From positions 19,354,168 to 19,418,167 of the forward strand of contig OZ316897.1 of assembly GCA_973895155.1 (NCBI GenBank): DNA of 64,000 bases, written 5' to 3'. The notes beneath the pieces are model-generated. The model saw only the letters and a program-made list of their open reading frames with translations, searched no databases and was not told where the DNA came from. The first letter of the stretch is position 1, and every line of letters starts with the position of its first letter. The DNA is from Marsupella aquatica. Its lineage: Eukaryota > Plantae > Marchantiophyta. The translations under genes were made by a program, and so were the position numbers. Of the stretch, positions 1-56,940 are shown one piece after another.

Positions 1-1149
1 GGTACCCTCTTAAAGTTATTATATTCTCCTTTCTCAGTTCTCACCATTATTACCCCCGTGCTGGCCATTGACCTCGATTGCCAAGTCGCCAGGAACCATT
101 ATTTTGTCCTTTTCGAGTCACAACGTTTGCTTACTTTCCTATTTTCCTGTTCCTATTCCTCCATTGACATTCCTTACAAATCCAAAACCTTTCCTGTATT
201 CCATTGTCAACTCACTATACAATTGCTTTCATAAAGATGTGAGGAACAAGAAGGGACAAGTTTCCAGGCTCTTCCTCTCCCCCCTTTCACAAAAACAACA
301 CCAAGGGACAATTTAGATGGCTTCACAAGCGGTTACACTTCTTGTTGTAACTATATACTTGGGGCCAAAAATGGTTTAAAATGAATAAAATGTAACATTT
401 AGAATTCCTTTCCTTTTACTCCATGCGCGCTTTTTAGGAATTGGTCTTTCTTTTGTTTTCCCTTGAATGACGGAAATTTTGGACCACCTCTGCCAAAAGT
501 TAAGACAAAATAAGCACTCCAATTTGGCATTTACTTGGGCCCACTGCTTGAGGTCCAGATTTAGTGTCAGAGTGAATAGAAAGACAATGTGGCCCAAGGT
601 CTTGTAAAGCCACACTTGGTTTAACAAAGGGAGAAACGTTTGCAACTTCAAAGGGGTTTTGAAAAAAACTGTTGTTTGTGGACAAGCCAGCTAAGTGGCT
701 TATAGGCAAAGAAAAACCAGGTTATTTATTTTTGCATTTTTTGCATGTATAATAACTATCACCAGCCTCTGGTGCTTAAGGGCATTACACCTGCACTACT
801 GATGCTCCAAGGGATTGATAGGATATGGGAATATTGTCCTAAAAGTATCTAATACTGAAAAATGCGCAAAAGAAAAGCAATTTGTGTTCATAGGTCACCT
901 GTATCTGAAACTTGAGGGGGGACCAGGTTGTTTGCACTTCACACCAATTTTTTTCCTTTGTCAGCTTTTTACTAACCTGTCCCCCAAACTACCCAAACTT
1001 TCTAACCTCTCCCCCAAACAAAATTAACTATCAACCTGTTCCCCCTTTTGTATATTGGTTACCACTAACTCAACCATGGTTACCATTTGTTCTCATATAT
1101 AACCATGGTTTTGTCGTGTATTTGTCTGAAACCACCTTCTCCAGAACAT

Positions 1150-1234
1150 TGGCTCCGTCTCAATCACCTCACAAATGAAATGATAACAAATGTTGATGTG
1201 CTTTGTCATAGTATGGAACACAAGGTTCTTAGCT
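1150..1234 (-). mobile_element. Ty1/Copia RNase H relic, C-terminal half (continues 4271-4510 across the MULE insertion)
   Basis: The minus strand reads AKNLVFHTMTKHINICYHFICEVIE, a decayed form of the Copia RNase H motif AKNPVFHxRTKHIDIRYHFIRE. Confidence 0.85.
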
Positions 1235-1556
1235 GAGAGATATACTTAATGGACCTCCAAATGCAATTTTTCTCTTAATGGACCAAAAGTTGCACACTCT
1301 CTCCCAGTGGACCTTTGGGCCCACCAGAGGTACCATTTCATGTGAGATGAACATTCTTCTAACACACTGCACAGTTCTTATAACGCTGGATTGTCATTAT
1401 AAAATGCAGTGTCATGTTCTACTGTTCTTCAATGTCCGACCGCATCGCCGAATGCAGTCAACTACGATCACAGTTCCGAGTGAATCAATGTATACATTCA
1501 TTGACCACAATGCATACAAACATCAACTGTAATGTTGAATAAACAAAAAAAATTAT

Positions 1557-2100
1557 AAGTGTGAAATCTGATACAACATGCAACCTGTATACATGACAAA
1601 TCATACTTCTATGTTGAATATTCATGTGCAGGTTTTGTCCATTTGGGCAGGCTTTGGCGGGAGGGGGGGCGTCTTCTTTAAAGTCAGAGGGACTGAATTT
1701 TTTTCTAAGTGTGACATCTGAATACAACGTGCAAAGTCTATACATCACAAATCATACTTCTAAGTAACTTGAATACAATAGGTTTTGTCCATTTGGGCAG
1801 GCTTTGGTGGGGGGTATCTTTGTAAAGTTGGAGGAAATGAAAATTTTCTAAATGTGAAATCTGAATATAACGTGCATATTTTACACAAACTACACATCGT
1901 TCTATGTTCAACATTATGTGGTTTTGTCCATTAGAGCAAGACTTGGTGCTTGTATATAAGGCCAGGGAGTCATAATTTTGTTTAAGTGCAACCTTGGAAT
2001 ACAATGTCTACCATGTATACAAGGTAAAAATGGTTTTGTCTATTTGTAGGCTGCAGAGTCTTGAATACATTGTGCGACATGTATACCATTCAATCATGGT
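1557..2100. repeat. Degenerate tandem repeat, ~150-bp unit, about 4 copies, inside the MULE
   Basis: Recurring AAGTGTGAAATCTGA(A)TACAAC...CAAATCATACTTCTA...GGTTTTGTCCATT(T/A)G(G/A)GCA blocks. Confidence 0.75.
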
Positions 2101-2133
2101 TTGTGCATTCTTGTGTACTCCGTTCATTTTTGG

Positions 2134-2428
2134 CTTGGGGGTCTCACTATATGGGGACCTCCCCATAACCTGCAATGTTTTTAGGCCTCGGACCCCCTAA
2201 AATGTAAGAAAAAATTATTTTTTTTAACCCCTATAAAGTTAGAATATTCTTGGAATATTCTAAAAATTGGATTGAAAAGACCCTAATGCTCTTATAAGTC
2301 TCAAAATTGAATTTAAAGACCCTATTGTTCTTCTACAAAAATTCTTAAGTCTTCCCTTAGAACCAATATAATGACCCTATCCTTCGTCGCACGTGATATG
2401 TCATTTTTGTGGAAGTGAAACCCCCGAG
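2134..2428. mobile_element. hAT-type MITE, copy 1
   Basis: 15-bp TIRs CTTGGGGGTCTCACT ... AGTGAAACCCCCGAG and a perfect 8-bp TSD ATTTTTGG (2126-2133 / 2429-2436). Homologous to 51926-52225. Confidence 0.88.
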
Positions 2429-3279
2429 ATTTTTGGAACATCTCATGCAAGTGTACAGTCTTCAAAGAGAACAAGAAATCAAGCAACATTGGACATTATT
2501 TACTAAATCCAACAACAATTTACACATACATAGGCCTATTGATCGATCAGTTCATTTACACATTGGTGACAAAACAGGGCTATAACTTTCCCCAAGTTGT
2601 GAACCATATTGCCTTCCAGCATGTATTCTCATGAAAGAAACAAATGTTAAGACATGTTACAAGAAACAGAGTTTTAAAAATACATAACCATGTAGAATTA
2701 TGTGTTCTATTCTCAGCATACAAAAGAATGTTGCAACGTGTTACATAACAGAGACTTTAGTGAATCCATAAACAACGTTGAAGGATCATAACACATTAGA
2801 AAGTACCAATTACACATACACATTTTCAAAATTATGCAAGGGCTCCTCCAATATTCACATCAAATGTAAACTGCTCATCATTGAAGCTCAAGAGAATGCT
2901 AAATGACACAAAATCATTGTCCCAAACCACCAATCAATCTCTTGAAGAAATAACAAAAATACAACAACCAAGACGTATTCTTCATGGCACATACAAAATC
3001 CCTATCATTTCTCTTCGGCGGATTTGATGGTGGACAAATGAAATTTGAAATCATTGTTACGGTCACCCTCCTGCTGCTGCATAAAGACATCCGCATCCAC
3101 AAGATTGTTGTTGCTCATCACTTTCTCAACTCTTGTTTTGCACAAGGGCACGACTAGGAGGGCAATGTCTACGCTCAACAACAAGCTTATTTACAACAAC
3201 AGTGTTGTCTTGCTTTAATCCACACTAGACAATATGGGATCTATCTGAGCAATTTGCTTGACTGTGCATTGTCTCAAGC

Positions 3280-3636
3280 TGGCAAATGGTACCATACTCT
3301 GCAAATTCATCAACATTCATCTCCACAAGCTCTCCTACAGCTTGAAAGATTGTGGCCTTGAATGGCCCAGTGTTCTCATACACATCAACTATGAAAATTT
3401 GGAACCTATATACAAATGACAATTGTTCCCGTCCAATAGCGGGTCATGGTTGCTGCTTCAATGGATTTCCCACAAACCAAATGATCATTGCCAATCCCAT
3501 GCCTACAACCTCTGTAAGTGAAATTTCTGGGCCACGGGAACTCAAAGGCAAAATTACAAACATATACCGGGATTGGCCCAATGATGTTGTCTGGCCACTC
3601 CTTCATTGCAATTTGCATATCCTCAATGGTTGACAT
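3280..3636 (-). pseudogene. Frameshifted RPA70-like C-terminal OB-fold/zinc-ribbon fragment inside the MULE
   Basis: MSTIED...FTYRGC..CGKS (ORF 3406-3690), then in another frame VYRFQIFIVDVYENTGPFKATIFQAVGELVEMNVDEF (ORF 3225-3422). This resembles the RPA1 DBD-C pattern YxAC..CxKK...RY.L...D.TG....T.F...E. Confidence 0.5.
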
Positions 3637-4270
3637 AGCAGGAACACAAGCAAGAACATGAGCGGGAACAGGAGCAAGAACTACCAACACAAGCAGGAAT
3701 GCAAGAAAATGTTGAGTAACAAACCAAATGACAATAAAACAACAGGTTCCAAACGGGTTCCATGAAGGGCAGGCACATTTGAATTTTGAAAATTCCTTTA
3801 AAAGTTGTATACATTGCGGATAATGTCTTCATAAAATCAAGGAGGTCGGGGGAGGTATGACGCAAGCTCCAATGCAGTCATAAACTATTTCCTTTGTATC
3901 TTGAACTTTAGCGTCGCTTGTGTGATCTAATGCCACCGCAAACTCGTTCAATTGTAGCCATATTGTATTCAACAAAACTAGGAAGCCATGGTGCTACGGC
4001 GCTTGATTGCGGCCAAGGGCTACCATGCTTGTGTGTTGCAACGTTATCGACGGCCTATTACACACGACCAACCATGGTGTCCATAGGGTACGCAGTGGAC
4101 CTGAACTGTGTGGTAACTAAAGATGTTTCAAAAGAACATACTTGTACGGAGTGGGCCCGGAGGTCCATTGGGAGGGAATTTGAAAGTTTGGGTCCACTGG
4201 GAGAGAGTGTGCAACTTTTGGTCCATCAAGAGAAAAAGTTGCATTTGGAGATCCACTAAATATATCTCTT

Positions 4271-4510
4271 GTTTTTAGCCAGATGCAAAACACTTTGACT
4301 ACCACACAGTAGTACTGGCAGATCATTCACCAATCTTTGTAGTTATTTCAGCTCCTTGGTTCCTCACAGGCAGCCATGTGCTCAGCCTTAGTAGTAGTTA
4401 AGGCAACACAAGATTGAGTTGCCAACTTCTTGCTGATACAACCTCCACCCAGCATGAACACATGCCTATAGTAGACTTCCTGTTATCCAAGTTAATAGTG
4501 TAATCCAGAG
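4271..4510 (-). mobile_element. Ty1/Copia RNase H relic, N-terminal half
   Basis: Minus strand, with frameshifts: LDNRKST / VFMLGGGCISKK..QSCVALTTTKAEHMAACE / PVLLCGSQSVLHLAKN. Confidence 0.85.
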
Positions 4511-5541
4511 CCCGGGCCTCACTTAATGACTCCCTGATGGAGGGAGCACAATGCCCCTCCCCGCTTCTTCATAATGCTGCAAAAACAACCTTGAGCCCTC
4601 CTCGTGCATGTATAGGGCTTTGGGCCCTCTCAATGGCTTGAGCCCTGTATAGGGCCTTGTGCCTACAATAAAAGCTCCCAAGAGAAGGAAGCAAGTAATT
4701 CCCCCTCCCCTTGCTCAATGCACTTTGGGCCTTGGGCCCCCTATCAAAAGCTCGCGAAAGGAGGGAGCATTTAAACTCTCCTCTTGCTCCTCCTTGTCCA
4801 CTTGTACATTGATGGGGCTTTGGGCCCTCTTGATGCCACAAGCCTGACTAAAGGCTCCCTAGGGAAGGGAGCCTAGTGCTTCCCCCTCCCCCAATTAAAT
4901 GAGTGTACCTTTGGGTACCCCTAGCTTGCGCTACAAATGCTCGTACCTGGGCTTGGTACAAAACCTATCAATGCCCCTCGTAGCCTTGTCATCCTCCGCG
5001 CCCTCTTTGCCTTGTCCTGGCCAATGTGCCTGAAAAAATTGCATTGTGGTGACTACATACCAGGCAACACAAGCAAAGCAAAATTAAAATGCACCTTTTG
5101 CATACAAGTGCACAACATTTTTTGAGAAGAAACCATGACCCCATCGACCCTACAAGTGTTTGTCTAAAAACTACGAGCCATAGCCAAGGATTACAAGATC
5201 TAATGAGCAAAAATTGCCAACCAATATTGCTTCCCATTCTTACGACATAACATTTTAATGTTGCCACTGAAGACAAAGTGCTCACCAATGCATTTGATAA
5301 ATTGTTGACTGCCTTCCTGACAGTATCTTCAAAAACACCGTGACACCTCCAACACTTCAGCTAAAGTTTTGAGAAACCATCACCACTTCCAAACACAAAA
5401 TCTTCAACACAAAATGACCAATGAAATGATCAAGTAGTTGCCAACATTTGACGATTCAATCTTTCACCCCAATTCCACACAAGAAACACTCTCAACACTA
5501 TCCAGACAACCAAACCTTGAACACAAAGTTGTAATACCATT

Positions 5542-5846
5542 TGTAAGAAACCATCAGCTCAGACTATACAGCCAGCGGCACATGAGAGAGACACTCGATC
5601 AGACGCTACACTGACAAGACACCACAAGTGGAGAAACTCGTGAAGGACCCATAGCATATGAGAGTATATGTGAAGAGTGAGGGAGAGAAGGCTCTCCCTC
5701 CAACCTATATAGGGGAGAGATACTCCCTAGGGGGGCGGAGATGTGTGGGCCTAATCAAGCAAATCTTATCTTAATGTAATCAAGGGTAAGCTAACTCTAG
5801 TAAGGCCAAACTAACTAAAGTCAAGAACTCGAGTCAATTCTTAACA
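5542..5846 (-). mobile_element. Copia-type LTR with a degenerate tRNA-Met primer-binding site
   Basis: Termini TGTAAGAA...TTCTTAACA and an internal CCTATATAGG. On the minus strand it is followed by AA-TGGTATTAC (compare TGGTATCAGAGC), facing the Copia relic. Confidence 0.6.
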
Positions 5847-7909
5847 AAATGGGGGCCAGGTTGATAATTAATTTTGTTTGAGGTACAGGTTAGTAAAAAG
5901 TTGTTTCCTTTGTATCTTGGGCAGATGACACTTGTAGGAGTTGAGAAGCCTCCCATTGGTGAAGAATTAAACTTCAGCTGTACTTAAAACTTTGTAACTT
6001 CCAAGAAAGAGAAACAAGCCATAATGTATACAAAATGGAACAAACTAAGTACAAAGAAGAGAAAGCAATGAGGTTCAAAAAGGACAAACACCAAACACTA
6101 AAAAGAGGAAATGCAACCCCAAGGAAGAGGAGAAAAAAAGGGAAAAACGGGGAAAGAGCTACCACTTCACTAGTGTGATGAACTAATAGTCCACATCTAC
6201 ATTGGTGTTGTAATAAATCTGCAAGTGGGACAGAGATGTCCTCTAAGGGGTCAAGTCTACAGAGGCACACTAGCACCCATGGCCAGAGATTGACGGCAAA
6301 TTGCACTAGCTTGAGCACATTGCAATATCACTGAAATTTTCTAACAAAAGCGCATGGTCAAATTAGAATGTGAGGGTCAAACCGTCCATGAACATTGCGA
6401 GCTGCTTGTCAGCCAAGGTACACTGATCATCACAGACCATGGTAAGATCACCCCATGAATGGTGTGATGGAGAACTATCAATTCAACAGATTGATAAGAA
6501 CAAGGATCTAACTTATTAAATTAGTATCTGAAGTCAAAAGAGATATCAGAGTTTTCCGTAAAGTGGTCAAAGGCGAGTAAGTTGTGGGTCATATTGACCA
6601 GATTCAGGGTTAGTGAAGGTTTGAACCCAATCTCAACTTCTTTGTGTGTTGAACAGGGGTTGAAACTGTCTGAACCCCTCCCAGAGTGATTACAGTGTCC
6701 CAGATTGACTTACCCTAAGTCACCCACAGTTTTAACAAGAGAGGTTTAGTGCACTGCTGCAATGGAGGTTTTGCACCTAGCAAGGAAGAGGAGATGTTGA
6801 TTGCCCTCCATAAAACTAAGCCAAGTTTGGTGAGTTAACAGCACTCAGGGGGCTCTAGGTAAATACTCTTTTCTGGGTTTAACTCACAATGAGACTCAAA
6901 GTTTCTACCCCCCTGCATTTGCCTAATACTCTGAAAAAATATTGTATTGAATTTTATAAATTTGAGGAGTTTGTGAGGACACTGGACGACCTACTGACCA
7001 CAAGTTGAGGCTGTTACTGGGAACTAATGGAGGGGGACTTAGGAACTAATGGAGGGGATCAAAATCTCAGTCAAACATGAAATACATGAGGCTTGAAACC
7101 AAGCACATGTAGGGCTCTAAATATACTTTTCAAAGTTAAGGGTTGCAGACATAGCAATTTAATACATCAAACAAACAACAAGAAAATAGTGTAAAATGAA
7201 TCTTTAGTGCATGCTGAGCTACTGCCACCTTAAACAAGGCACAGGTTTCTTGCCCAGCAGCAAGAGAGGCACCCTGGGCAGTGTTGTATTCAAATAGTAC
7301 ACCATGGGCTCAATAGTTGAGGTTTAGCCATAGGTTTATTGAGGAAAGGATGAGGCTTTCTATTGAAATCGCAAGCCATGGGTTTCTTTTTGAAAGGCAT
7401 TTTTCATTAAAACTTGAGATTTGAATTTGGTTGTTCTTCTAACACAATAGCCTTATTCAGGTGCAATGCCCAGATCCCATCACAAGGATCATACTCTCTA
7501 ATAGAAAGGGTTTTGTGTACCACATCCCAAAGTGGGCTCACCAAAGCCCTCTGCACACTAAAGACTTGACACTTCAGAAAATTGGAGGTCACTCTCTTTT
7601 CATTTAAATGGACACGTACAAACAGGTAGGCAACATCTAAGTGTGGGACTCAAGCGATTGTAGTAAATTATTTTTCCAGAAGCTGTCAACCTGAATCATG
7701 TACTTATGTACTCAACAAAGGGTCTTTTAGTTCAAAACGACAAAGGGATTAAAAAGCCAGCAGAGGAAAACTCTACCAGCAAGCCAACAGGCCATAAAAA
7801 CCACAAACACTCTTGAAACTAGTTCAATGAGGAGCAAAAGTAGATCTGTGTGAAAGCAAACCACCCCAATTGGTGAAACAGAGTATTCCAAAGTTTACCA
7901 AGTAAAGCT

Positions 7910-9858
7910 TGTCTCCAGTCGCGGAACTTGACTACCTTAACACTTAGCTCCAACGTCGCTGACTCCGACGTCGAGCTCCCTTATGGTCCAGGCCCGGATA
8001 GGCCATCCAGGGAGGACTTAGCATGGGGAGACTTGTATGTGGACAATGGGACGTGGCACTAGCAAAGGCAATGCGCCAAGCTGGTGACACACACTAAGGA
8101 CTTAGACTAGTTGAATGCTGGTCGGGTCAAGGGGAAAGGGGCCGGGCTCAAGGTTGACCGTCCGACCCCCGGACCGACTTTGAGTTATGAGGGCTTGATT
8201 GAGAGCTCCTCTTGGGCCCAAGGCCAATGGAGTTGATGCCATGGGCAATGGACGCTTGGGGCGCGAGTTATGGCCCGATCCGGGTTTGGCCGATCAGGGG
8301 CCCCAAGCGACAATGAGATATGAGGGCCTAGGCATGAGCACTGGGTCGGCCCAATCACAATGGGCTAAGGCACTCCGCGTGCGGACGCCTAACTAGGAAG
8401 TTAGGGGCATTGCCAGTTAGTGGCGCGCCCAAACATGCGGGATAGTATCCGGGTTGTGGACCAAAAAGTTGAGGACCAAAGTTGGTCCGGGGGTGGCAGG
8501 TCTCCAGAAGCATATATGAGGGGAGTGGTGTCTCCCTGGGGGCTAAGGGCGAGCGGAAGTCATGAGCCACGGTGGTCGCGACACTAAGGGAAAACGCCAA
8601 ACAGAAATGGCGATACCTTCCCAATGGGAAGTCCGTTGGAAGACTTCTTGGGTGCATTGGAAATCTCTCAAGGAAGGCTACATCCTCTTGAGCTCAAATG
8701 GGGCTGGGGGTGCCGTAGGTTCTTGAGGTTTGCGGGTATTATCTCATCCGCCTTCCAAATCCTGCCGAAATAGTAGCCAAGCCGCGTTCAGTCTCTCAAG
8801 GGAGCTTGCATCGGGGAGGCAAGGCCAAGTTGGCATGGAGTTTGAGTTCCAAGGGAACTTGGCCCCTATACCATCAGTGGGGTGAGAACCGGAAGTTGGT
8901 TGCTAGAGTCAGGGCCATTCTGGTCCCGGCATGTTGGGACAAGCTATGCTATTTGGGCCATGAGCATGTCCTGGGGGCAGGGCGGTCAGTTGGTGATGGA
9001 TAGGTATGAGGGGGAACCCGAGCTGCGCCCAAGGAAAGAGTTGTTTTGGATGAATAGTGGGCGTTAGTTCTGGTTCCGGCTTATGGCATTGGGAGGACCT
9101 GTCGTTGACCTACTTACCAATGTCTGTTGAGCTTGAGTTACGATGCTAGACTTGGGGAGATCTAGATCCAGAAGGGTTACTTACTGAGATGCTTGGTTGC
9201 TTGTACAGATAGTGAAGACCATTGAGTAGCGGTCGTGTTGGAGAGCAAGTGCGGCTTTGTATGGGAGGGGCCGCTGGTGATGCAAGGGGCACTAGGTTGT
9301 TGCTCAAGGTATTCCGTGGAGGCGTTCGGGCACCAGGGGCACTTAGACGTGGGTGCTGGGGTTGGCAAGGGGCACTAGGTTGTTGCTCAAGGTATTCCGT
9401 GGAGGCGTTCGGGCACCAGGGGCACTTAGGCATGGGTGTTGGGGTTGAGGGCGCTGGGTGGCAAGGTCCACCACTTGTCCCTAGCCATCTCCTGGGCTAA
9501 CCCACTCGTGTTTGTGGGGCATCACTGGCCTCACAAGGCATCATATCCTTATATGGGAGGGAGAGGACTGCAACACAAGATGTCTGTGATGTGGTGGCTG
9601 TCCCTGAGACTCCGGACTCATTATCCCAGTAGAGCAGCTCCATGTGCTTTGACCTTGGATGGTGTTCCAGACATACACAATGGGCTGTCATGACATATAG
9701 TATCGTAGCCATAGTGTATCGAAAACATACAAGTCACCGACAATGCATGTGCAAGCTGCTAGCAACCAACATGCATAGAAAAAGTCCAATCACATTCCCA
9801 AGTGCCAAGAAAAAGCAACTGAGGTGGTATGTACGTAGTGGAGGTGTAAACCTCTGTA
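7910..9858. mobile_element. GC/CpG-rich LTR-like segment downstream of the Gypsy PPT (3' LTR or a separate nested LTR; unresolved)
   Basis: Non-coding and CpG-retaining, with a TATA-like CATATATGAGGGG at ~8511 and an internal 83-bp tandem duplication. It starts right after the PPT on the minus strand. No partner copy was found. Confidence 0.4.
9282..9447. repeat. 83-bp tandem duplication
   Basis: GCAAGGGGCACTAGGTTGTTGCTCAAGGTATTCCGTGGAGGCGTTCGGGCACCAGGGGCACTTAG at 9282 and 9365. Confidence 0.95.
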
Positions 9859-9870
9859 TCCCCCCCAGAC
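9859..9870 (-). promoter_or_regulatory. Polypurine tract of the Gypsy element
   Basis: Minus-strand GTCTGGGGGGGA about 30 nt after the polyprotein stop. Confidence 0.6.
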
Positions 9871-9898: not shown

Positions 9899-10300
9899 TC
9901 AGGTAGTACGTGGAGCACAGGAAGGGCAAAACCATAACCCTTCTGGCACCTGGGTAAGTTCAGGCCGAAGGCAGAAAAGATGGTACCCTCCATTGCAATT
10001 ATCACACAGCAGCATCTGGTCAGCATCATCAATTTGCAAACACACTTTGCAAGGGTAGTCCACAGGTGGAATCCAGGTAGAAGTCACAATGGTGGGATCC
10101 AGGTTAGGCAGATGACAAGGGGCGCAATTCTTGGCATTGTCAGCAATTGTGCGCCCATCTGCCCCTTGTAACTCTAGCACTCCAGATGGTCGAATAGCTT
10201 TAACCCTGAGAATAGTACAACTGGTAGAGGTGTCCAGGGTGTCATTAGCTTGCCGCTGCAAGTACACAAAATCTCCCACATCAAAATTCCTGACCTTGGG
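9899..10300 (-). pseudogene. Integrase C-terminal module plus PHD finger (C4HC3; 9917-10051)
   Basis: In frame with integrase after the TAG at 10301: PKVRNFDVGDFVYLQ...ILRVKAIRPSGVLEL..., then CKVCLQIDDADQMLLCDNCNGGYHLFCLRPELTQVPEGLWFCPSC. Confidence 0.93.
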
Positions 10301-12229
10301 CTAAAAAATGCCCCCTCGTGTGTGTGCATAACGCAGTGTGTCCCTATGTTGTGCAATGGCCAAATTCTCCATGGGCATGGGCATAACCCTCCTGAATAGG
10401 GTAGCCCTCTCAGAGATCACATCAGACCAAGTCACAGCTGAATCCAAGTCCACCACCTGAAGCATGTGAACAGCAATAGCAGAAGGTGGAACTGGGTGAC
10501 GACCAAACAACAAGAAGTAGGGAGAAAAGTTAGACAATGATGCATTTCTAGACATCCTATACCCCATGGCAATGTAGGGTAAGGCCAGGTCCCAATCCTC
10601 CTTGTTTTTGGTGAGGCAAATCTTCCGGAGACCCTTCTTGCATGTCTGAACCATGCGCTCTGCCAAGCCATTTGCCTGTGGGTGATCTCGTGATGTCCGG
10701 CGATGATCAATGAGGGCCTGATCAAGCAGATCCTGGAACTCTCCTCTAAACTCTGAGCCCTGGTCAGTGAGACATTTTGCACAAGCTCCAAAGCGGCTGA
10801 GAACTTGTTGCAGGAATGCCTGGCTGGTGCTACGGGAGGTCTTATCCGGCAATGCCACAAGTTCTATCCAATTGGAGAAATGCTCTATCATGATCATGAT
10901 GTAAAGATTACCCCGAGATGTGAGGGGTAATTCTCCAGCCAAATCACATGACCAACGATAAAACATGCCCTGAATAGGGAGTGGATGAAGTGTGGGTTGC
11001 CGAGATGTGAAAGAAGTCCTTACCCTATCACATTGCTCACACCGGGCAATAACATCTCGAACCTGGCCATGCATGCCTCTCCAATGATAATGAGGGACCA
11101 AGAGGCTGTAAGTCCTCTTAACGCCAAAATGACCAAGCTCAGAATGTACCTTACGGATAAGGCCAACCCTCTCATGAATGGGTGGAACCACCACTTCCCT
11201 ATCTGGCAAGCAGCGCACAAGATGATCTCCCTTCCACAAGTAGCGCTTGGACCTTTGCTGAATTTGGTCTCTCTGGGCAGCAGTAACATGGGTAGGGTAC
11301 TCCCCATGCTGCAGAAATCTCAGAGTGTCGCTGTCCTCCCATATGTCCACCACAGGTTGGTCAACAATGTAGCATGGCAGCAAAGCAAGATAGGTAGATG
11401 CATGAAATGTAGGCAGGATGGAAACCTGGTCAAAATCCTGCCATGCATCTGAGGAATCATCAGAGGCAATCAAAGGGCTGCGGGACATAGTGTCAGCATT
11501 TTGATGTGTCACACCAGGCTTATGAATTACCTCAAAATCATACTCCTGGAGTATGAGCGCCCAACGAGCAAGCTTGCCAGTAAGCTTGTCGTTGGTCATC
11601 AACCACTTCAAGGGCTGGTGGTCGGTGTAGAGGACAAACCTGGTCCCATAGAGGTAGGGCTTGTAATGTATGACAGCCCACACAACAGCAAGGCATTCAC
11701 CCTTATACGAAGAATAATGACTCTCTGCCTGATTGTTGCTCCTAGATGCATAGGCAATGACGTAATCTTTACCTTCCTCGTCATGCTGGCCCAGAATGGC
11801 ACCAATCCCAAGGGCACTCCAATCTATGTGTAGCACAAAGACCTTGCTGAAATCAGGTCTTCTCAGCACCGCGTATTCTGAGAGCTTCTCCTTCAAAGTG
11901 GCAAATGCTGCCTCAGCATCTGTACTCCATGTCCAAGTCACATTCTTTTTCAACAAAGCATACAATGGGTGTGCAATGGTGCTGAAATCTTTGATGTAGA
12001 TCCGGTAGTAATTGCACAACCCAATAAAACTCCTCAAAGTGTGAACATTGGTAGGAGTGGGCATTTCCAAGATGGATACCACCTTGGCCCAATGAGCCAT
12101 GGTTCCATTTGGAAGAATGCGGTGCCCAAGGTATACTACTGATCTGACAGCAAATTTACACTTCTTGGGGTGTATCTTTAGGTTCACCTTCTTAAGCCTC
12201 ATGAATAGCTCCTCAAGGTCAAGTAGATG
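10301..12229 (-). pseudogene. RT thumb/connection, RNase H and integrase of the Gypsy pol
   Basis: KC.F...V.YLGH and LRSFIGLCNYYR. RNase H: FVLHIDWSALGIGAIL, GECLAVVWAV, TDHQPL. Integrase HHCC: VHSELGHFG...CEQC. Catalytic D-D-E: WSCDLAG / LTDQGSEF / NGLAER. Confidence 0.95.
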
Positions 12230-12830
12230 CTAGTCAAATCCTTTGCTGTGGACCAACACATCATCAATGTAGCATTTCAGAAACTCAGCACCTTGAAGAA
12301 CCTGGTCCATGACTCTTTGAAAGAATATGGATGCATTCTTTAAGCCAAATGGCATCACCAACCACTCCCATAGTTGGTTACTACCATGGAAAGCTGTTTT
12401 CTTGCGATCCTTTGCAAGCAGCAAAATCTGGTTGAAGCCTTGCCTTAGATCCACAAGAGTGAAGATGTCTGAGTCTCCAATGCTGTCAAATAGCTCCTCT
12501 GGCCGTGGCATGGGGTACCTGTCCTGGGGTGTGACCAGGTTCAGTGGCCTATAGTCCCCACATGCGCTTCTCTGTCCACAATCCACTGGAATCCTTCTTT
12601 GCTGGCATCACTGTAGTTGCTGCAAAATCTGATGTAGATGGCTGAATAAGACCAGCTTCATAGAGCTCTTGGCACCTCTCATCCACCAGCTGCCACTCAT
12701 GCTTACTCAAACGGTGTCTTCGCCTGAAGATAGGTGTTTCATCAGCCAACTCAATGGAGAACTGCATAGTCTTGCACTTACCCAAGTCCTTCATAGAGAA
12801 AGCAAACACGTTTTCATGCTTGAGGAGAAA
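12230..12830 (-). pseudogene. Reverse transcriptase core
   Basis: FAFSMKDLG...GLIQPSTSDFA...KKD...KRM, frameshift, CGDYRPLN...YPMPRPEELFD...DLRQGFNQ...KTAF...VMPFGLKNA...YIDDVLVHS (YIDD at 12260-12271). Confidence 0.95.
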
Positions 12831-13229
12831 ATTCAGTAGCTGGTCCTTCTGTCTTTTACTCAGGTGGTTGCCCATGATGAATGTGTATTTGGCAACACTA
12901 GGAATAGGACCTGATGTACTCGTGCTTGAAGAGCTAGAAGTGCCAGCCTCTCCACTATCCAAGCTGCTAGCATGCTGCTGATAAGGTGATGAGGCCTCTC
13001 CAAGGCCTGTTGTACCTGCTGATCTGAGTTGGTCCACACCATGAAACTCAGAAATATTGTCAGCCACGTTACAAGGGACCTCCTCCCCCCCAACACTTGG
13101 ACTGAAGCGGTGAGTGTTGAATAGAGGTAAGTGCACCTGGTCTGGATGCCATGTAACAGCACCATGGAGTGGGAGAGCTGGAACTCCAGATGCTGGATGA
13201 ATGTACATCTGAAAAAGGATGCAAGTGAC

Positions 13230-14175
13230 CAGAAGCCAAGTGAGAGCATTAAGATCCATTACCCTGCCAAGTAAAGCATTCCTGACCAGCTTGGTGATGT
13301 GGGTGTGGCCTGTAGTACCGGATTGGAAGCCCATAGCCCCGTTCTCTCTCCTCAGGACTAGGTTCATCCCAAGTACCGGTAGAATGTCGATAAACCAGGC
13401 CAGGACCATCACCCTGAAAGGCATGTGCACCTGGAAAGGATACAAATGTAGGCCAAGCAGCACGAGGCTGTCCAATGGTATTGGCTGGATACCAAGGTGC
13501 TGGCTCTTGCCGTGTAACTGGTTGGCAAGAACTGTTAGGATCCAAAATCTGGTCCACTGTGAGGTTAGTGTCCCTAGATGTGTGGTGAAGAGCTAACTCC
13601 AACAAGGAAGGTGGTGCAAGGTTAGTCCAAAAGTTACGAAGACGATGTGCATAAGAACCATAGTGCACTGCATCAATGAGAAGGGGTGGTCCCAAGTAGT
13701 GCTGGACCACACTGAAATCCTCTTTGACCTGTGGACGCTGGTCAAACTGAGATGGAGTATTCTCAATGATATAACCAACAGCAGGATAAAGGGATTGAGC
13801 CCAGGTGAGAATCTGAACCAATGCTGTGAAAAGGCCAGAACGAGAATCATGCAGTCCAGCACCGTGACCAGCAGCTGAAAACCCTTGGCATTCCCAACCA
13901 GCTATGATCAAATCAAGGGAGCCAAGAAGGGTTAAGTGCCGGTGCTGGACAAGTTGGATATCTGGAGGAAAGAAAGAAAATGTAGACTTCCATGCACTGT
14001 GTGGAAACTGCTGGGGAAATCGCTCTGAAAATTCCAGCAGACGAGAGTCAGCCACTTGCCTTGCACCTGGATCAATGTCCACGTAGATGTACTGCTTCAC
14101 CACCATGCTGGACTGTAGGAGAGCTTCCAGGCCTGTAGAAATGTCACCAAAAAGCTCAAGCAATGTAAGGCCATC
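13230..14175 (-). pseudogene. DNMT3-like C5 cytosine DNA methyltransferase domain within the polyprotein
   Basis: Motifs in canonical order: I LLELFGDISTG; II YVDID; III DIQ; IV DLIIAGWECQGFSAAG (Cys at 13888-13890); V GLHDSRSGLF; VI YIIENT; VII-VIII IDAVHYGSYAHRLRNFWTNL; IX PSPEERER-AMGFQSGTT (across a +1 G at ~13339); X RNALLGRVMD. Confidence 0.92.
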
Positions 14176-14572
14176 CGGAGGAGGAGTCCATGTAACTGGT
14201 ACGCTCCAGATTGGGGCTATTGGTTGTCCATTGTGCTGCCCAAGGTCCTCAAATTTGCACAATGCAGCCACCAAAGGTCCATGGGTTGCTTGGAGCCGTT
14301 GTACCACCTCTGGTTGATGATCCACGTTGATGGAAAGTGCTGCTATATGTGCAGCAGCATGTGCAGCAGCATGTGCAGCAGCCACCTCATCATCATCCTC
14401 CTCAATCCAATCCTGCAATGGGTGGTTGACATAGGTAGCTGTGTGCACTGCTTTCAACACACAGTGGTGAGCCATAGGTGTATGAGCACCATGCAAATCA
14501 AGTGGAATGTAGCCCAAGTGTGAGCCATCCGTATGCCAATCAACTCTGTAGTATGCATGCTCATGCCAGTTG

Positions 14573-15499
14573 TCAATGGTAAAACCTGGGTGGGAACAAA
14601 GCCTCCTGGCCAATGAGCACATCATACGTAGTGGCATTGGTAACCAAACATCTGACTGGGAAATGCAGTTCTTGATCTGTACCGCCATTAAAAGTGAGAG
14701 TGAGTAAAGTAGAACTCTCACCCAGCACATCCTCCACAGTACCACTAGCAGTCCGAATGTGCCACCTGGATTGTTGTAAATGATCAGTCAGCAGTCCCAT
14801 CTTCTTGGCAAACTGAATGCCCAATATCACTGGTTGAGCGCCTGTGTCTAGCATGACCACCTGAGGAGTGTGACCCTCCAACTTGACCGCTGAATTCCTG
14901 TTGTCAACAATGGCAATGGTGGTGGAAACTGAAGTCCTGTCGCTAGGTACCACTTTTGGCAAATGATGAGGTACCTTGTGAAGGGAGTTAGTGTCCACGG
15001 TCTTTCCACTCAACAGCATAGTCAGGAAAGATGGAGCAGCATGACCAGAGTCCAGTGTAGCTCTAGTCACACAATCTGTAACAATACTGTCATCTCTACC
15101 ACTGGAAATTGGTACTGGGATAGTCAAACCAGTGGAAGCATGTAATGGAGAAGAGGAAGGTCCAGTATGTACATGAGATTGGACCTCCACAACCGGTGTC
15201 ACAGGGGCTAATGAAGAATGCAGTGAGCCCTCTAGCGCTCTCATGACAGCTCTAGCATCCAGTTGTAAATCATGGCAACTGAAAAATGGAGTTGTAAGGA
15301 TCCTTTGTGCCATACCGGAGGTGAAATGCTCAAGCAGCTCAAGAGAAACAACTCCCTGTGAAATGTCAGCAGCACCTGGTGGTGGAATGGATGTAGGTGC
15401 AGCTCCCTCCCCCCTCGCCAACAAGGTGCGCTCTTCAGCAAGTGTGAGTGGCTGAAAAGATTGGGGCAAGACAGCCCGAGCTCCCCTGGCTCTAGTCAT
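14573..15499 (-). pseudogene. Retroviral-type aspartic protease region
   Basis: VVMLDTGAQPVILG (Asp at 14846-14848)...IRTASG...YDVLIGQEAL. A +1 C near 14589 shifts the frame into the DNMT-containing ORF (FPP-GFTIDNW). Confidence 0.9.
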
Positions 15500-15652
15500 A
15501 GGACCGGTAGCAAGACCATCAGCCTGTACAATGCGGCGTGTGGGAGCAATACGGGAAGCTACACTAGCCTGCTGGTAAGAAAAATAGGAAGGGCAGAATG
15601 AATCTGAAAATTATGTTGTAAGGCCAGGCTGTGTAGCAGAGGACAGCACACA

Positions 15653-17305
15653 CTAACCCATATGAGCATCAAATGGCAAGCCATAGAAAGAGCGGGGTAG
15701 AGATGCTGAACTGTCAGTGGTGCCTGGGCCAGAGATGGGTTGCACGTGACCAGCCGGTTGAGAAGGACCAGCAGAGGCAGGTGACTTGCCTTTGATGCTG
15801 GCAAGTTGGGCACGTAGGGACTCAACCTCATGAGTCAGAGACTGGAGTTGAGTTGCCTGGGCATTGTGAGCCTCCTTCTGAGTTGGTTGCTTTTGTTGCT
15901 GCTTGGGCAATTTGTTGGCACTAGGTGCTTTGCCACTGGAAGGAGGAGAAACTGATGCAGTAGGAGCCCTCCTAGCTGGTGGGGGAGTGGAAACAGGAGC
16001 AGGATGAGTGGCCTGTTGTCGTAGCTGCTTCCTCTCTGGGAATTTGGCAAAACAAACTGCCTCCAAGTGACCCACTTTCCCACAAAAATCACAAGACAGG
16101 TCCTCAGCAACAATATCACATTCATTAGCCTTGTGATTAGGATTGCCACAGTAGTTGCAAGATGGCAGCATGAAAGCAGCATGTGCTAGTTTGGTCTTGG
16201 AAGCATATTGTGGCCCACGGGAAGGGGTGGCCATTGTAGGGGCAGCAGCCTGGTACTTGGATCGCGGTGGACACGCAATACTAGCCTCATAATGTGCATG
16301 GGCCAACTCAAGTTTCTCAGTAGTGTCATTGAGCAAGGTGTAGCTGTCTCCAAACTCTGAGAATACTTGCTGCAACACTTGCAAATGGAGAGCTGGTGTG
16401 CCCTCCAATGCGCGAAGATAGCAATGAGCAGCTTCCAGGTCAGTGATGCTCTGGGTGTCCTCCTTCAGCTTGAGAAGCCGATGATAAATCATCTTCAATG
16501 TTTCATCGCGCTGCCTCACAAAGGTGGCCAACTGTATAATTTTTTCAGCACTCTTGATTGGGAATTCCAATTCAAGAACCTGGAAAAATTCAGCCACTGG
16601 ATCAGCAAAGGCAGGGGAATCAATGGTGGGAGAAATGCCTGATGTAGCCTGTGCCAAGTCAGTGGGAGCGGGAGTGGGAGTAACTGGTGTAGTGGTGGGA
16701 ATTGGAGTAGGAGGGGAAGTGGCAGGAGCAGCAGCATGGGCTGCAATGGCATTCTGTAATGCCAGTTGTGAGGCATCCGCAATTGCAATGGCATAGGCAG
16801 GGTTAGGCAATTGTGTGACAGCAAGTAGCCATTGAGAGTGCTGCTCATACACATCCAAAGCCTCGTGGTGCACATACCTGGCTAGCTGCTTAAATGCAAA
16901 AGCATTTGTGAAATTGCTGCCATACTTCAACTCCAATTCGTAAACAACAGTGTAGAAAGTGGATTTGAACTCATGCAAAGAAACAGTGCCTGGCCGCCCA
17001 CTGAAGCGTTCAATGCGGCCAGATGAGTGGCTGGCGTCCATGCTGTATGTCGGTGAAGCAGGAACAACCACAGATGCAGAAGGGGTAAATGGCAATGAAG
17101 TGATAGCAGGCTTTGGAGTAGTGGTGAAGCGACCGCCAAATTGAGCAGAAGGATTGCGTGGTGTGGGTGCTATTGCTGTCTGCGGACATCGTCAAAATTG
17201 CCGAGACTCCAATGAAATTGGCACCAATGGTCGTGGATCACTCCGTAAATGGTACCTGGGTGTCGGTGGCGATGTGCTGCTACCTCCTGGCTCGTCTACT
17301 GACAT
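15653..17305 (-). pseudogene. Gag with two CCHC zinc knuckles
   Basis: ATG 17305 MSVDEP...PRYHLRS, in frame with ORF 15653-17095 across a TGA at 17192. RIERFSG capsid-like start; CNYCGNPNHKANEC and CDFCGKVGHLEAVC. Confidence 0.88.
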
Positions 17306-17699
17306 ACTGTGTTGCAATACCGGATATACTGAAAACGTGCAAAATGTGTAAACACCAGGAAAACCGTCACCGTCAAAAAACCGTCGGGGAAAAAGGACCC
17401 TTAAAACCTCAAATTTAGCCCCCTTCGTGTTTGCCTATGTATATGCCAAATTGACCGTCCGGTGTGTATATACCGGGCCGTATGCAGACGACCTGACATC
17501 GGCGACAACAAAGGAATATGAGGAAAATGGGCCCCCTGAAGTGTATACCTCGGGCCCCTATGTGGACCCAAAAACGGAAGGACTGGCCGGCCCCAATGCC
17601 CTATGCTGTCATCCCGCGCGTGGTGAATGAGCGAGAACGGCCGAAAACAAAAAGAAAAGGGCCCGAATTAAGTGTATACACTTCGGACACTCGGCGAAG

Positions 17700-18130
17700 G
17701 GAAAGAAATGGCGGATGCAGGGGCCCCTCTTAATGGCACGAGCCCTGCGTAGGGCTTCGCGCCCCCTCCTTATGAGCTCCCGAAAAGGGGTTACGAACTC
17801 CCCCCTCCTCTCCTTTAATGCTGCCTCGCTTCCCCTCCCCTCCTTAAGGCTGAAAATGGGCTCCGTGCCCTGCAGGAGACTCCTGAGGGAAGGAGTTGTA
17901 TGTACTCCCCCCCTCCATTTAATGTAGCACATAGGGCCTCGTGCCCACTGCCTCGGCTCTGTCTCGCCCTGCTTTAATGCTGCTTCGTGTGCTGCAGGAG
18001 GACTCCCGAGAAGGGAGTCGTATGTACTCCCCTTCCCCCTTTAATGCAGCATAGGGCCTCGTGCCCACTCCTTGCGCTGCTGCCTGCCTAGGCTCTGTCT
18101 CCCCCCTCGTGCTTGTGCTCGGCTAGTCGA
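17700..18130. repeat. GC-rich degenerate repeats upstream of gag; related decayed copy at 4530-4990
   Basis: Repeated GACTCC(C/T)GAG..GGAGT(T/C)GTATGTACTCCCC...TTAATG..GCATAGGGCCTCGTGCCCACT. 17720-17810 aligns by eye with 4620-4720. Confidence 0.65.
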
Positions 18131-18716
18131 CTCCCTGCCTCCTTAATTAAATGCTGGCAAAATGAGAGGGCCCGATGCCCTATGCGCAGCCTGCCTTATG
18201 CGATCGGGAGGGAGGCAAAGGGGAGACTACGGCCGGAAGCGGCAAAAAAGAGAAAAATGGGGCGCGCGGTCGGAAGGGAAGTGGTCGCGCGGCAGCCGTG
18301 GCCGGGAAAATGCCCATAAAAACTAACGAACAAGGGTCTTAAAAACGTGAGCGAGGGCGCAGCGGCCTGTTCAGTCGGCAGCAAGTCGCCGATGTAGGTC
18401 ACAAAGAAGGTTGCGGCCAGAAAAGGAAAACTTGGGCCCCGACGGGAGTGTTATGTGTATACACTTAAGTATACACATAACTCCACACTAAACCCATAGT
18501 TTTGAAGCCTCGTTCCAATGTCTATCGAGGAAATTGCAACGGCTTAACCAAAAATTGTCGAAACTGCCACGAGAAATCTTCTTTCCGTCACCGCTAACTC
18601 GACAGTTCTTCTTGAATAAAAGGCGTAAGAGAAACAATCGTACTGAAATTGAATCAAAAACCGGCAGGATGCCAAGATCAGTCGGGAGCATCTAATGAAT
18701 CATTGTGTGAATCCCG

Positions 18717-19245
18717 TGTACGGAACCGACGAGCACTGTCTGAGCTTTGTCAACAGCGATTCAAGAAGAACTGAAAACCGACAAAGAGAAACACACCCTA
18801 AGTAGATCAAGTCAAGGCATCACACTAACAAGCACATTTTGCTACAAGAACATGACACTAACTCAAGTAGTACACTAGCCCTAACTACATACCTAGCGGG
18901 CATGCGAGGGACATGCCGATGTGCACAAGCGGCACTGTCCCTCGGCATGACAGGGCTGATATGGTCTCTAATAAGGCAAGAGTACATCCTAGAACAACGT
19001 AACATAGATGAAACCCCATCTAAACAAATAATCTCTAGCTGGGGCCACTGCGGTTGGTACAGGCATCTATGCCTTTCACAAGCACCAGCAGCGAGCTGTG
19101 GTTGATGATCACGGAATCCTCACTCCAGGGACCGAGCCGATTACCATCTCTTGTAAGTCGTTGTGTCCTACGTAAATATGGGTCCAAAGCACTCTGTAAG
19201 CTAGAAATACATGACTCTGTGATGCAGCTTGCGGGATGATGTACA
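18717..19245. mobile_element. LTR-like segment (candidate 5' LTR or unrelated solo LTR)
   Basis: Bounded by TGTAC...GTACA, with an abrupt shift to AT-rich DNA after 19245. No TSD, no canonical TGG PBS and no partner copy. Confidence 0.35.
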
Positions 19246-23772: not shown

Positions 23773-26700
23773 TCATTTCAGACTCCGAGGACTTCCAGGA
23801 ATGGAGTTGTTTGAGTCAGCTCTCATCAATCTCTGCTCAGTGAAAGACCCAAATCTACTAAGCTGTACGTCTTTTGCGGTTGCACTAGTTCTGGTGTGAG
23901 TGTGAGCTGCAGCATATGGAGCATCACCAGCTGCACATGGAACAACAGCAAATTAGGACTGGGCTGATTACACAAATGAGTGTCCGTCTATTTGAGTCGG
24001 AGTACGATTTGAACTGTTTTCCTAGTACTAGCCATCCGACGCTGGTTTGCTTCAGACAGTATCGTTGAAACTTGTATATCTAGACAGCTGTACGTTTTTC
24101 TCGATAGAACTAGTTCTGGCAGCCGCATAGGGGGCTTTAGGAGCTGCACAGACCACAAAATGTTGTAGCGAATTAGTAAAGTGTAATCAAACCGTATAGG
24201 ACTTTTCTTTTTCTCCGGCCTTGGGGGTTGTGGTTGTCGTGGGGACTGGACTAGACCATTCGTGTTAAATTCCCCAAGCGCGTGTATTGCTCATACGTCT
24301 ACCTTCGGCGCGGGTCTTGGGATGTTTTAAAAAATCTTAAAAATGCCTATCCTGGTCCTACGGCAGAAATTTCCTGTTCAGTACATAATGAAATCACTAT
24401 TTTGGGGAAAAGCCAAGTGGGAAAACACAGAAAAGGACTGGGTTTGTGGGCTTACCCATCAAGATCTTGTTCGCCCGGGAAATATTCTCTCTCCTCTTCC
24501 ACAATATATAGCCAACGCCAAAAACCAGAGCAAGTCCAAGCAGTACCCCTAGTACAATGCCAAGAATTGCGCCCGCTGACAACCGGCTACATGATCGCAG
24601 GCCCGGGATTCCACAGAGACCTGGATTTCCCAGAAAACTGTATAAGACAAAACAAGAAGAATTGTTAGCTGTATACTGAGAGCTCAATCTTTGGATGAGC
24701 AGGGCCGGATTGAAGTCCTGTAGAGAAAAGGTCGAAGTTCGCCTGTGCAACTAGCAGCAGTGTTTACTGTTGCCAAGGGTAGTGCAGAACAAGCAGAGTT
24801 TCGAAGTCCTTCCTTCTATTGGTAGCCTGACTAAGGGTGTGCACAGCTTACCATGTCCAGGTCCCAAATAGGAGGAAATAGGGGGAGAGGGCAAGTAGAA
24901 CAGGGAACAAAAAACACCAACGGGTGTCCAGCTTCATCCAGGATGAGTTAGAGGGTTAAATTAGGAATGTCAAGATATCCAAAGCATGCCCAAAATAAGA
25001 ACTCGAAATTCCATAATTGAGACGAGTAAGGATGTAGGCCATACTTGACGCTTACTCCCCGCACCGGCCCAGCAGCAAGAGCAGGAGGAACTCTTCCAGT
25101 TAGTTGATTATTGTTCAGATATCTGAAAACACCGAAAAGCCACTAAAGAATAAGGTCCACAGGAACCTTTGTCTATTATAGTCTCGTGTAGGCATGAACT
25201 CCTTTTATCTGTAACTGACCAAAAGATTCAATAGTTACAAGAGCGTTCAGATATATATGATCAAATCCTAAGTCCAGATTAGGTGAAGTCAAAAATCTTC
25301 AAAGTGCGTTGAACAAAAGACGGCTATCACCGCTTACAATTCAGTAAGCTCGGGTAGGGTTCCAAGACTTTCTGGGATTGAGCCATTCAATTGATTGTTG
25401 GAAAGATCACTGCGTGTGCAACAAAAAACAGTAAGACATGCAACCATAGGTCATTCCACAAGCTACATGAAATGTGGCTGGAAGTCTAAATCTCCACAGG
25501 ACGCAAAATGAAAAAATCTATGCAGAGATCTTGGGAAACAGCTGATCCAAATCATGTTCTCAACCCTTTGTCTACGACTACAGACTTGATCGTTTCATTC
25601 GGTAGCAATTCTCCAAACTCGATAAGAAAATATCTTATCCAGCTCGCAAGTATGCCAATCTTAATTCATCACCATTTCCTCGAAAGTGCAATTTCAGTAA
25701 GCTGGATGGCCGTTGGGTGCTTACAGAATGGTGAGACTGGTAAGGTTGCCGAGGGAGGCAGGTATCGGGCCTTGGAGAAAGTTGTTCTTCATAATTCTGC
25801 AACAACAAATTGGACCGTAACTAAACGTTTCGCATTACTGATAACTATCACTCTCAATTCTTATCGTTAAGAGACAATTAAGACAATGCGCTCCATTTTT
25901 AGATGCTACGTTCTAAAGTTTCTAAAGTTTGAAAACGATACTCGGGCGCAAAGCACAAGGTTAAACGTATGTGCTCGTCAACTCCCGGTATGGAAGACAC
26001 TCTCCCCTTGGTATGGGAATTAGATCGTTTGCTGCAGAAGTTCTTTATTAGCTCTCGACTCTACGATCTCGTTCCCCGATTGGGTATTTGTTAACAAAAA
26101 CTTCAGTCGTCTATTTCTAATGTTACATTCTGTCGTGAAGGACACAAAAATAGGACAAAATGAAGAAGTTTTAAATGCAGATACCTAACAAATACAGCAG
26201 CATGGTTAGCCATGCAACAGACTCAGAACCCTATTATTTTCTAGAGGAGACATTTTGGATCTCTGGTAAAGAGAGCCCAAAAAACCTACAAAAAGTATGT
26301 GAGCTACTAGGTTCTTCAGTAATCCTCATTGTACAAAGTGGTAGCAGGCGCTGCTATTAGCAGGAAGAACAACTAATGAATAATTGAACTGTTAGTGCGG
26401 TTGATGGGTATCTCGGCATTTGACAAGCCCCCTTTTAGCACAAGCACAAAGAAATAATGGAGAGCTTACATATGGTCAATAGAAGTAAGTGAAGAAAAAT
26501 CATTGGTCATCACCCCCTTCAAACCTTCGAATTCAGCAACCCTGCGGGAGTTTTGAGAGGAACAAGAATAAGTATCTTAAAGACCATGATTCAATTTAGA
26601 TGCCATCTAGAAAATCTCCGCATCGATTATGAAGAATCAAGTAACAAGTTAATTAGATTAAGACGGCAACCATAGTTGAAGTTCCATTACAACAACTGGG

Positions 26701-37522: not shown

Positions 37523-41779
<4,257 letters not shown>

Positions 41780-56519: not shown

Positions 56520-56940
56520 AATACACCTTCAATAAGGACAAATGTACTTGAAAGTATTGAGACATGTTAAAAAAGTGGGGAAAAGAAAAGAATGGGAGAA
56601 AGGGGGATAATGTAGTATTTTTATCCCCCCAAAATATTTTTTAAAATATATATATTTATATTTGTATATATATTGTGCCAAAATAATAAGTATTTCACAC
56701 ATTGAAAGGAGAGGCTTCAGCTTGCCCTTTCCCTTTGCGGGTAAGGGTGGAAAAAATGTCAAGTTTATTTTTTCATCTCAAAATCTTTTGCTCTATTTTT
56801 TTTCAATTTTTTTTTCTTTGCACACTTTTCTCTCTTCAACATATTTTGCTCACTTCAATATCTTTTATCACCTGGACATCTTTTATCACCTCGACATCTT
56901 TAGTGCAACAGAGGTACATTGGGCTAGTTTTCTCATAACA
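56520..56940 (-). repeat. Dispersed purine-array repeat family (copy 2, inverted, short)
   Basis: The reverse complement matches 32598-32660 and 33160-33270. Confidence 0.65.

Follow-up and report, generated by a model that had tools for sequence, protein, structure and literature searches.

Is a cytosine methyltransferase inside a retrotransposon a chance capture or a trait of the whole family, and what would such an enzyme do there? This question is raised by a 64,000-nucleotide stretch of contig OZ316897.1 (the window), which holds a Ty3/Gypsy element of 9,267 bp on the minus strand, from 18952 to 9686. The element encodes Gag, protease, a C5 cytosine methyltransferase (DNMT), reverse transcriptase (RT), RNase H, integrase and a PHD finger, in this order. 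In this study, we found support for the DNMT as a family trait of an old, high-copy bryophyte Ty3/Gypsy family, and not a one-off capture.

The identity of the DNMT domain was examined by profile, structure and motif comparison. The DNMT frame matched Pfam PF00145 with 28.5 bits (E 1.3e-6; cut-off 22), and RVT_1, rve and PHD were also matched. A preliminary description, made from the letters of the window alone, had placed a C5-methyltransferase between protease and RT, with motifs in order including the catalytic Cys, ENT and AHRxRxFWxNL; the Pfam match and the motif positions (the last motif reads AHRLRNFWTNL) confirmed it. The features of a DNMT3-type enzyme were all found, namely unrearranged motifs I-X, the catalytic Cys, the Glu and the Arg-x-Arg. 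The catalytic Cys was present in 215/215 homologues, the motif VI Glu in 212/213, and the two motif VIII Arg residues in 207/214 and 204/214; members that share only 35-40% identity still have every catalytic residue and the S-adenosylmethionine (SAM) loop. A single-sequence search of solved structures gave DNMT3A as the top match, and a 12-sequence profile matched DNMT3A at E 8e-19, DRM at 5e-11 and bacterial HaeIII/HhaI at about 1e-6. A model of the Calypogeia homologue (pLDDT 91.9) returned DNMT3A/B/C in all 30 top Foldseek rows, with a best E of 4e-18 (DNMT3B/A). The ESM Atlas gave generic C5-methyltransferase clusters only, phage clusters first, at 0.96. None of 41 pattern matches in viral contigs was confirmed as a close relative of the element DNMT, and no close donor was found in the 5 of 64 parts of the prokaryote genomes scanned (best E 5e-9, 22-47% identity over short stretches). 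By score and by fold, these results place the element enzyme with the DNMT3 type, ahead of DRM, DNMT1/2 and the bacterial enzymes.

Natural relatives carry the DNMT within a single polyprotein. In Calypogeia fissa, P0042 (1549 aa, CAM6101866.1) is one unbroken open reading frame (ORF) of Gag, protease, DNMT and RT; P0034 is likewise a single unbroken ORF of these four domains, and P0003 is unbroken through DNMT, RT and RNase H. Because these relatives show one ORF, the continuity of the DNMT with protease and RT needs no repair of the window copy, and the earlier view of the DNMT as part of the polyprotein was borne out. At E values up to 1e-30, the DNMT profile recovered 501 clusters (50% identity). 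The named relatives were Calypogeia, Sphagnum compactum, S. magellanicum and Closterium, followed by Chromochloris, Monoraphidium, Scenedesmus and Cymbomonas; no named Klebsormidium sequence was among the matches. Among 41 fetched loci (27 distinct groups), DNMT is followed by RT in 33, while 4 stop short of this region, 2 are internally deleted and 2 show another order; an unbroken polyprotein was found in none of the 39 loci of window-type order.

Two slots for the DNMT were seen in the wider set of homologues. In the 128 homologues longer than 600 aa, whose architecture strings leave out RNase H (its positions were taken from Pfam), the DNMT lies after RT or directly before integrase in 101, after protease or before RT in 15, and after Gag only in 1. 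It shares an ORF with other Gag/Pol domains in 117 of the 128, in the two different slots, and the other 11 have no second scored domain. A PHD finger is found on the integrase in half of them (64/128). P0344, P0386, P0031 and P0179 and the fetched locus L040 (5700-11309), an unbroken 1,870-aa ORF, represent the other slot: in Scenedesmus, Cymbomonas and Monoraphidium the DNMT comes after RT/RNase H or before integrase, and Chromochloris gave a DNMT-only match. P0006 (1440 aa) has the protease-DNMT order, yet its DNMT groups with the RNase H-DNMT-integrase clade; from this case, repeated moves of the domain between slots are possible.

The descent of the DNMT and of the RT-RNase H region was compared in trees. 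In the DNMT tree (217 sequences, midpoint root), the window sequence grouped with Calypogeia (0.975), inside a land-plant clade with Sphagnum (0.999), and with Closterium in a wider clade (0.969). In the RT-RNase H tree (99 sequences, FastTree, rooted on two unrelated and distant Gypsy RTs), the land clade was recovered at 0.995, with Closterium and the clade of the second order (0.958) separate. The ratio of nonsynonymous to synonymous substitution rates (dN/dS) between the window and the loci, a check named in the preliminary description, had a median of 0.125 for DNMT (37 of 39 pairs, those with unsaturated dS, by a simple counting method), 0.081 for RT, 0.070 for RNase H and 0.072 for integrase; the protease-DNMT linker gave 0.41. 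Among the decayed loci themselves, the medians were 0.40-0.47 for DNMT, RT and integrase and 0.74 for the Gag-protease linker. These ratios support purifying selection on the DNMT.

The element has the following parts, 5' to 3' on the minus strand.

18953..18956, minus: target-site duplication (TSD), 5' side, 4 bp, identical to 9682-9685.
18616..18952, minus: repeat A, 337 bp, begins TG; with the end of repeat B it forms a 7-bp terminal inverted repeat.
17042..18615, minus: long GC-rich 5' leader, not CpG-depleted (observed/expected CpG, o/e, 0.85); 90-bp internal duplication; no TGG primer-binding site after A.
15656..17041, minus: Gag with two Cys/His knuckles (16159-16052; zf-CCHC E 0.004); probable start ATG 17041.
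14590..14900, minus: aspartic protease (PF13975 E 1.5e-7); DTG 14851-14834.
13203..14190, minus: DNMT3-type C5 cytosine methyltransferase (PF00145); intronless, motifs I-X unrearranged; frame break near 13337.
12110..12890, minus: reverse transcriptase (RVT_1 E 2.3e-16); YIDD 12271-12260; frame break near 12557, stop 12232.
11540..11930, minus: RNase H (PF17917 E 7.7e-37).
10304..11182, minus: DDE integrase, H2C2 zinc finger (PF17921 E 5.5e-14) and rve core (E 6.6e-13); stop 10303.
9899..10300, minus: integrase C-terminal region and PHD finger (10051-9917; PF00628 E 1.4e-12); stop codon at 9899.
9860..9866, minus: G-run immediately 5' of repeat B, likely polypurine tract; in fetched loci a G-run stands before the first B only.
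9686..9859, minus: repeat B, 174 bp, ends CA; no second A-B after it in the window copy.
9682..9685, minus: TSD, 3' side, 4 bp.

The preliminary description had given the extent as 9899..17305. The element is longer than this, and its TG..CA ends and 4-bp TSD had been missed. The start of Gag had also been put at 17305, whereas the unbroken relatives match the ATG at 17041; the window Gag is 61% identical to that of P0001 and aligns to residue 1 of P0042. The best solved relative of the integrase was Ty3 Gag-Pol (E 6e-19), and the PHD finger best matched those of WSTF, CHD4, EHD3, ATXR5, BAZ2B and KDM5 in the PDB. The linker between protease and DNMT of the window copy holds a short in-frame tandem duplication of three Ala-Ala-Ala-His units (about 14340-14380, minus strand).

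The ends of the element were located from contigs of other copies, which join 18953 to 9686 and 9859 to 18615-6; the limits of repeats A and B were set there because these joints fall at those positions. At position 9686 itself the summed family depth drops from more than 100,000 to about 100, and past this point the flanks of other copies are unrelated. The depth is also low at 17582-18215, inside the 5' leader. Other copies run from the start of B into sequence resembling the end of A. The two terminal long terminal repeats (LTRs) and the tRNA primer-binding site of a canonical LTR retrotransposon are absent from the element. Neither an LTR pair nor a tRNA gene was found in the 64-kb window, and TGG after repeat A was absent in the window copy and in 5 loci. 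The Gag-protease-RT-RNase H-integrase order, the DDE integrase, the TG..CA ends and a TSD within 4-6 bp are those of Ty3/Gypsy. Assignment to the DIRS/tyrosine-recombinase class was rejected in view of the rve integrase and the 4-bp TSD; no recombinase was matched among the 7 element ORFs scanned.

The full form in the fetched loci is A-ORF-B-A-B. Of 20 distinct insertions, 11 end in B-A-B and 3 gave no match; the remaining 6 have a single B as their last unit, one of them being interrupted and another lying close to the end of its contig. The A/B and B/A junctions are also present in contigs of the same family from the runs with the window locus. An exact 4-bp TSD was found in 4 of the 5 copies with both outer ends and 3 of 4 bases in the fifth, three of the end points having been placed by the end motif after the flanks were inspected. 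In 16 loci the inner B/A junction consists of CA or TA and, after a 2-base spacer, TG or TA. A 479-bp A-B unit that stands alone and is flanked by a 4-bp TSD (L022:18090-18568) is this family's counterpart of a solo LTR. Split repeats at the ends explain why the clade escapes LTR finders. Both ends would be rebuilt without a tRNA primer, from the internal B-A junction as template. The A-ORF-B form of the window copy likely arose when its two B repeats recombined and the second A-B was lost; a circle opened at the B/A junction and then integrated would leave the same structure.

The window copy is dead. Compared with natural unbroken relatives it has seven breaks, namely stops at 15655, 15613, 12232 and 10303 and frame breaks near 14588, 13337 and 12557, where eight lesions had previously been counted. 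Beyond these, the motif I glycine, kept in 182/184 homologues, is substituted. Motifs I (14160), II (14085), IV with its Cys (13905-13885), VI ENT (13770) and VIII AHRLRNFWTNL (13650) share one open frame (14160-13618), and motifs IX-X (13353-13254) straddle the frame break near 13337. Two of the frame breaks are not family traits, since most of the depth there in run X2 comes from contigs that differ from the window. Runs X1 and X2 hold the window locus and may include the source sample. Among 13 runs listed, no RNA run held the locus, a result that is neutral as to expression.

The host and the abundance of the family were also considered. A malectin-like gene beside the element has only land-plant relatives among the 120 matches listed (best named, a lycophyte at 52%; angiosperms 41-45%), and no named bryophyte was among these 120 matches. 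Together, the relatives of the flanking gene and the DNMT and RT trees point to a seed-free plant, likely a leafy liverwort. The land-plant host and the dead copy of the preliminary description were thus both upheld, by the flanking gene and by the seven breaks. The summed contig depth of the element body was 89,000-160,000 in run X1 and 40,000-74,000 in run X2, against 51-75 for error-free flank contigs, a depth ratio that is not a copy number; the DNMT bins were about as deep as the RT bin in both runs. These results suggest hundreds to thousands of copies in the host. Beside the element, at about 7900-9450, lies a separate unclassified repeat whose depth, about 500,000 in run X1, is some fourfold that of the element; it has an 83-bp tandem duplication and no match in the fetched loci.

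A closely similar element has been described in an alga. The preliminary description had rightly named an algal precedent (de Mendoza 2018) and had understated its closeness: in the accessible text of that work, KnitGypsy-Dnmt3 of Klebsormidium nitens has Gypsy domains, Dnmt3 in Pol, DIRS-like A-ORF-B-A-B repeats and Ka/Ks <0.2 (PMC5890265). The window family shares with it the Gypsy domain set, an intronless unrearranged Dnmt3 in Pol, the A-ORF-B-A-B repeats and purifying selection on the DNMT, as judged from the published description. It differs in its embryophyte host and in being far more abundant, since in the part of the source available Klebsormidium has 33 DNA-methylase genes listed in all. 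That part makes no mention of a PHD finger, a 4-bp TSD, TG..CA ends, the 2-nt B/A spacer or a polypurine tract (PMC5890265). SymbioDIRS-Dnmt3 and SymbioLINE-Dnmt of Symbiodinium, in the same accessible text, also have Dnmt3 in a Pol ORF, two domain orders and A-ORF-B-A-B repeats (PMC5890265). However, these are tyrosine-recombinase or LINE elements, whereas the window element has a DDE integrase and a TSD, and no recombinase was found.

Other systems resemble the family in part. EpiLTRs/DAM-LTRs are, in the accessible part of a preprint (bioRxiv 10.64898/2026.05.21.726589), Gypsy-like elements with DNA methyltransferases and a chromatin reader, like the window element; however, their DNMT is sister to DNMT4 and lies at the 3' end of pol with DAM and a chromodomain, and the preprint sets them apart from 'streptophyte Gypsy-DNMT3'. 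The host enzymes PpDNMT3a/b (Yaari et al. 2019, PMC6453930), as described in the portion seen, have an unrearranged DNMT3 catalytic domain in seed-free land plants, as in the element, but are stand-alone with a C-terminal DUF3444, which the element DNMT, lying within Pol, lacks. Gypsy-7a_cRei of Chlamydomonas is a green-lineage Gypsy with a PHD finger in Gag-Pol that is thought to guide insertion; it has near-identical LTRs, and the accessible text names no methyltransferase (PMC9940879). The REXdb survey, according to its available text, required two LTRs at 95% identity (PMC6317226), and split-repeat elements would have escaped it for this reason.

No report of a land-plant Gypsy-DNMT3 was found in full-text literature, where coverage is thin for subscription papers, repeat databases and supplements. 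The accessible parts of PMC6453930, PMC9940879, PMC9033089, PMC6317226, PMC11982613, PMC8616336, PMC11244446 and PMC12885004 hold no land-plant or chlorophyte case. Later texts (PMC12344493; bioRxiv 2026.05.21.726589), in their available portions, say 'streptophytes' citing the 2018 work or without a land-plant case, and the supplement table of PMC12344493 has no Sphagnum, Calypogeia, Closterium or Gypsy entry. Judged by its sequences, the family extends a known kind (KnitGypsy-Dnmt3) to liverworts, mosses and Closterium, and to chlorophytes with the DNMT between RNase H and integrase. The end anatomy and the wider green-lineage range were not found in print.

On balance, we favor the reading that in active copies the DNMT would act within the particle, methylating the newly made cDNA of the element itself before this integrates. 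Because the DNMT is always part of Pol, in either slot, it would enter the particle along with RT. No targeting domain is attached to it, so its substrate would be chosen by proximity, the closest double-stranded DNA being the fresh cDNA. The preliminary description had likewise proposed release by the protease and methylation of the cDNA or the insertion site, a step that is still conjecture. A new insertion would arrive already carrying methylation, which would let it evade editing by passing for host DNA or would bring about its immediate silencing, and the PHD finger on the integrase would steer insertion to chosen chromatin. In the accessible text, isolated SymbioDIRS-Dnmt3 domains gave de novo CG methylation in yeast, and the authors propose cDNA methylation (PMC5890265). 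Several observations count against this reading. The KnitGypsy-Dnmt3 domain gave no methylation in yeast, a result its authors call inconclusive in the part available (PMC5890265). The residue before the catalytic Cys is Glu in 140/215 homologues (28/29 in the land clade) and the usual Pro in 64/215, and no protease cleavage site was identified. The dN/dS estimates come from non-independent pairs with dS close to saturation. The CpG o/e is 0.22-0.33 in the coding region, 0.60 in the right flank and 0.32 in the left flank, which host methylation explains equally; CpG depletion as a sign of self-methylation was rejected.

It is also possible, though unlikely, that the DNMT does its work during or after integration, in concert with the PHD-bearing integrase, so that methylation of the target flanks or of the inserted element seeds local heterochromatin. 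This would suit the integrase-PHD arrangement of so many long homologues, the finger's best solved relatives (WSTF, CHD4, BAZ2, KDM5-type) and the algal-type order with the DNMT directly before integrase. Many PHD fingers of these types read unmethylated H3K4, and the ADD domain of animal DNMT3 does likewise. In the window clade, however, RT and RNase H separate the DNMT from integrase. Less probable again is that the DNMT is kept as a SAM- and DNA-binding module or a covalent trap, for example to shield the cDNA or its ends while these undergo their unusual repair, and not as a productive 5-methylcytosine (5mC) writer. The replacement of Pro-Cys by Glu-Cys in motif IV of most members and the inactivity of the algal domain in yeast would agree with it, but catalytic residues and the SAM loop persist at such low identity, and binding alone would hardly keep the Cys in every homologue.

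We consider it improbable that the enzyme modifies the host genome in trans, as a DNMT3-like CHH or CG writer that adds to the host methylome when the family is expressed. The family depth, roughly of the order of a thousand times that of single-copy contigs in runs with the window locus, would favor this, as would the fact that bryophyte DNMT3 is a working plant enzyme class (PMC6453930, accessible part). However, the Klebsormidium methylome is land-plant-like despite such elements, whose copies are methylated as silent TEs (PMC5890265, accessible part), and all 39 fetched loci of window order are broken. A single neutral capture of a DNMT3 retrocopy from the host, a chimeric assembly or contamination by an alga would fit the decay of the window copy and the lack of a fetched contig covering the whole element, but is very improbable given the shared order in 33/41 loci (27 distinct groups), Calypogeia and Closterium, the purifying selection, the TSD, nearest named relatives that are bryophytes, and one error-free contig that runs from the flank into repeat B by 28 letters (bridging needs 31); capture and contamination, both raised in the preliminary description, are thus not borne out.

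Extending the cDNA reading, the parts may be joined into one picture that we regard as speculative and, taken whole, rather doubtful. An ancient Gypsy clade of 501 or more clusters (50% identity), spread through the green lineage from chlorophytes up to mosses and liverworts, would do without an LTR pair or tRNA primer, rebuild its ends from a CA-NN-TG junction cut directly by the DDE integrase like a transposon circle junction, and write its own 5mC on each new copy; in the window plant, with thousands of copies, the DNMT3 would help shape the host methylome.

The rest of the window holds further features. The malectin-like receptor protein is encoded at 24400-28904 (minus), with a C2-domain exon at 41462-41779 (plus) and Pus10 exons at 45490-47896 (minus). 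The product of an intronless GC-rich gene at 57681-58238 (plus) is small, has a hydrophobic N-terminus and matches PAN/apple weakly (E 0.003). In the Atlas, the closest clusters (0.95, 0.91) come from fungi, chiefly Ascomycota; with these taxa taken as a lead only, it is possibly a fungal-type gene in a land plant. One degenerate 18-19-bp purine-rich tandem repeat occurs in three patches, one of them inverted (32621-33064, 56826-56901 and 63641-63986). Nested inverted repeats, foldback- or MITE-like, were found at 49323-51170 and 999-5896.

Since 2018 the question has been why a retrotransposon carries the class of enzyme that silences it, and the known cases were algae with few tools. A high-copy moss and liverwort family, with unbroken ORFs in a sequenced liverwort, brings this question to lineages with methylomes and DNMT mutants. 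Element copies can inflate DNMT3 counts in bryophyte annotations. The handling of DIRS-like repeats by a DDE integrase is a puzzle in its own right.

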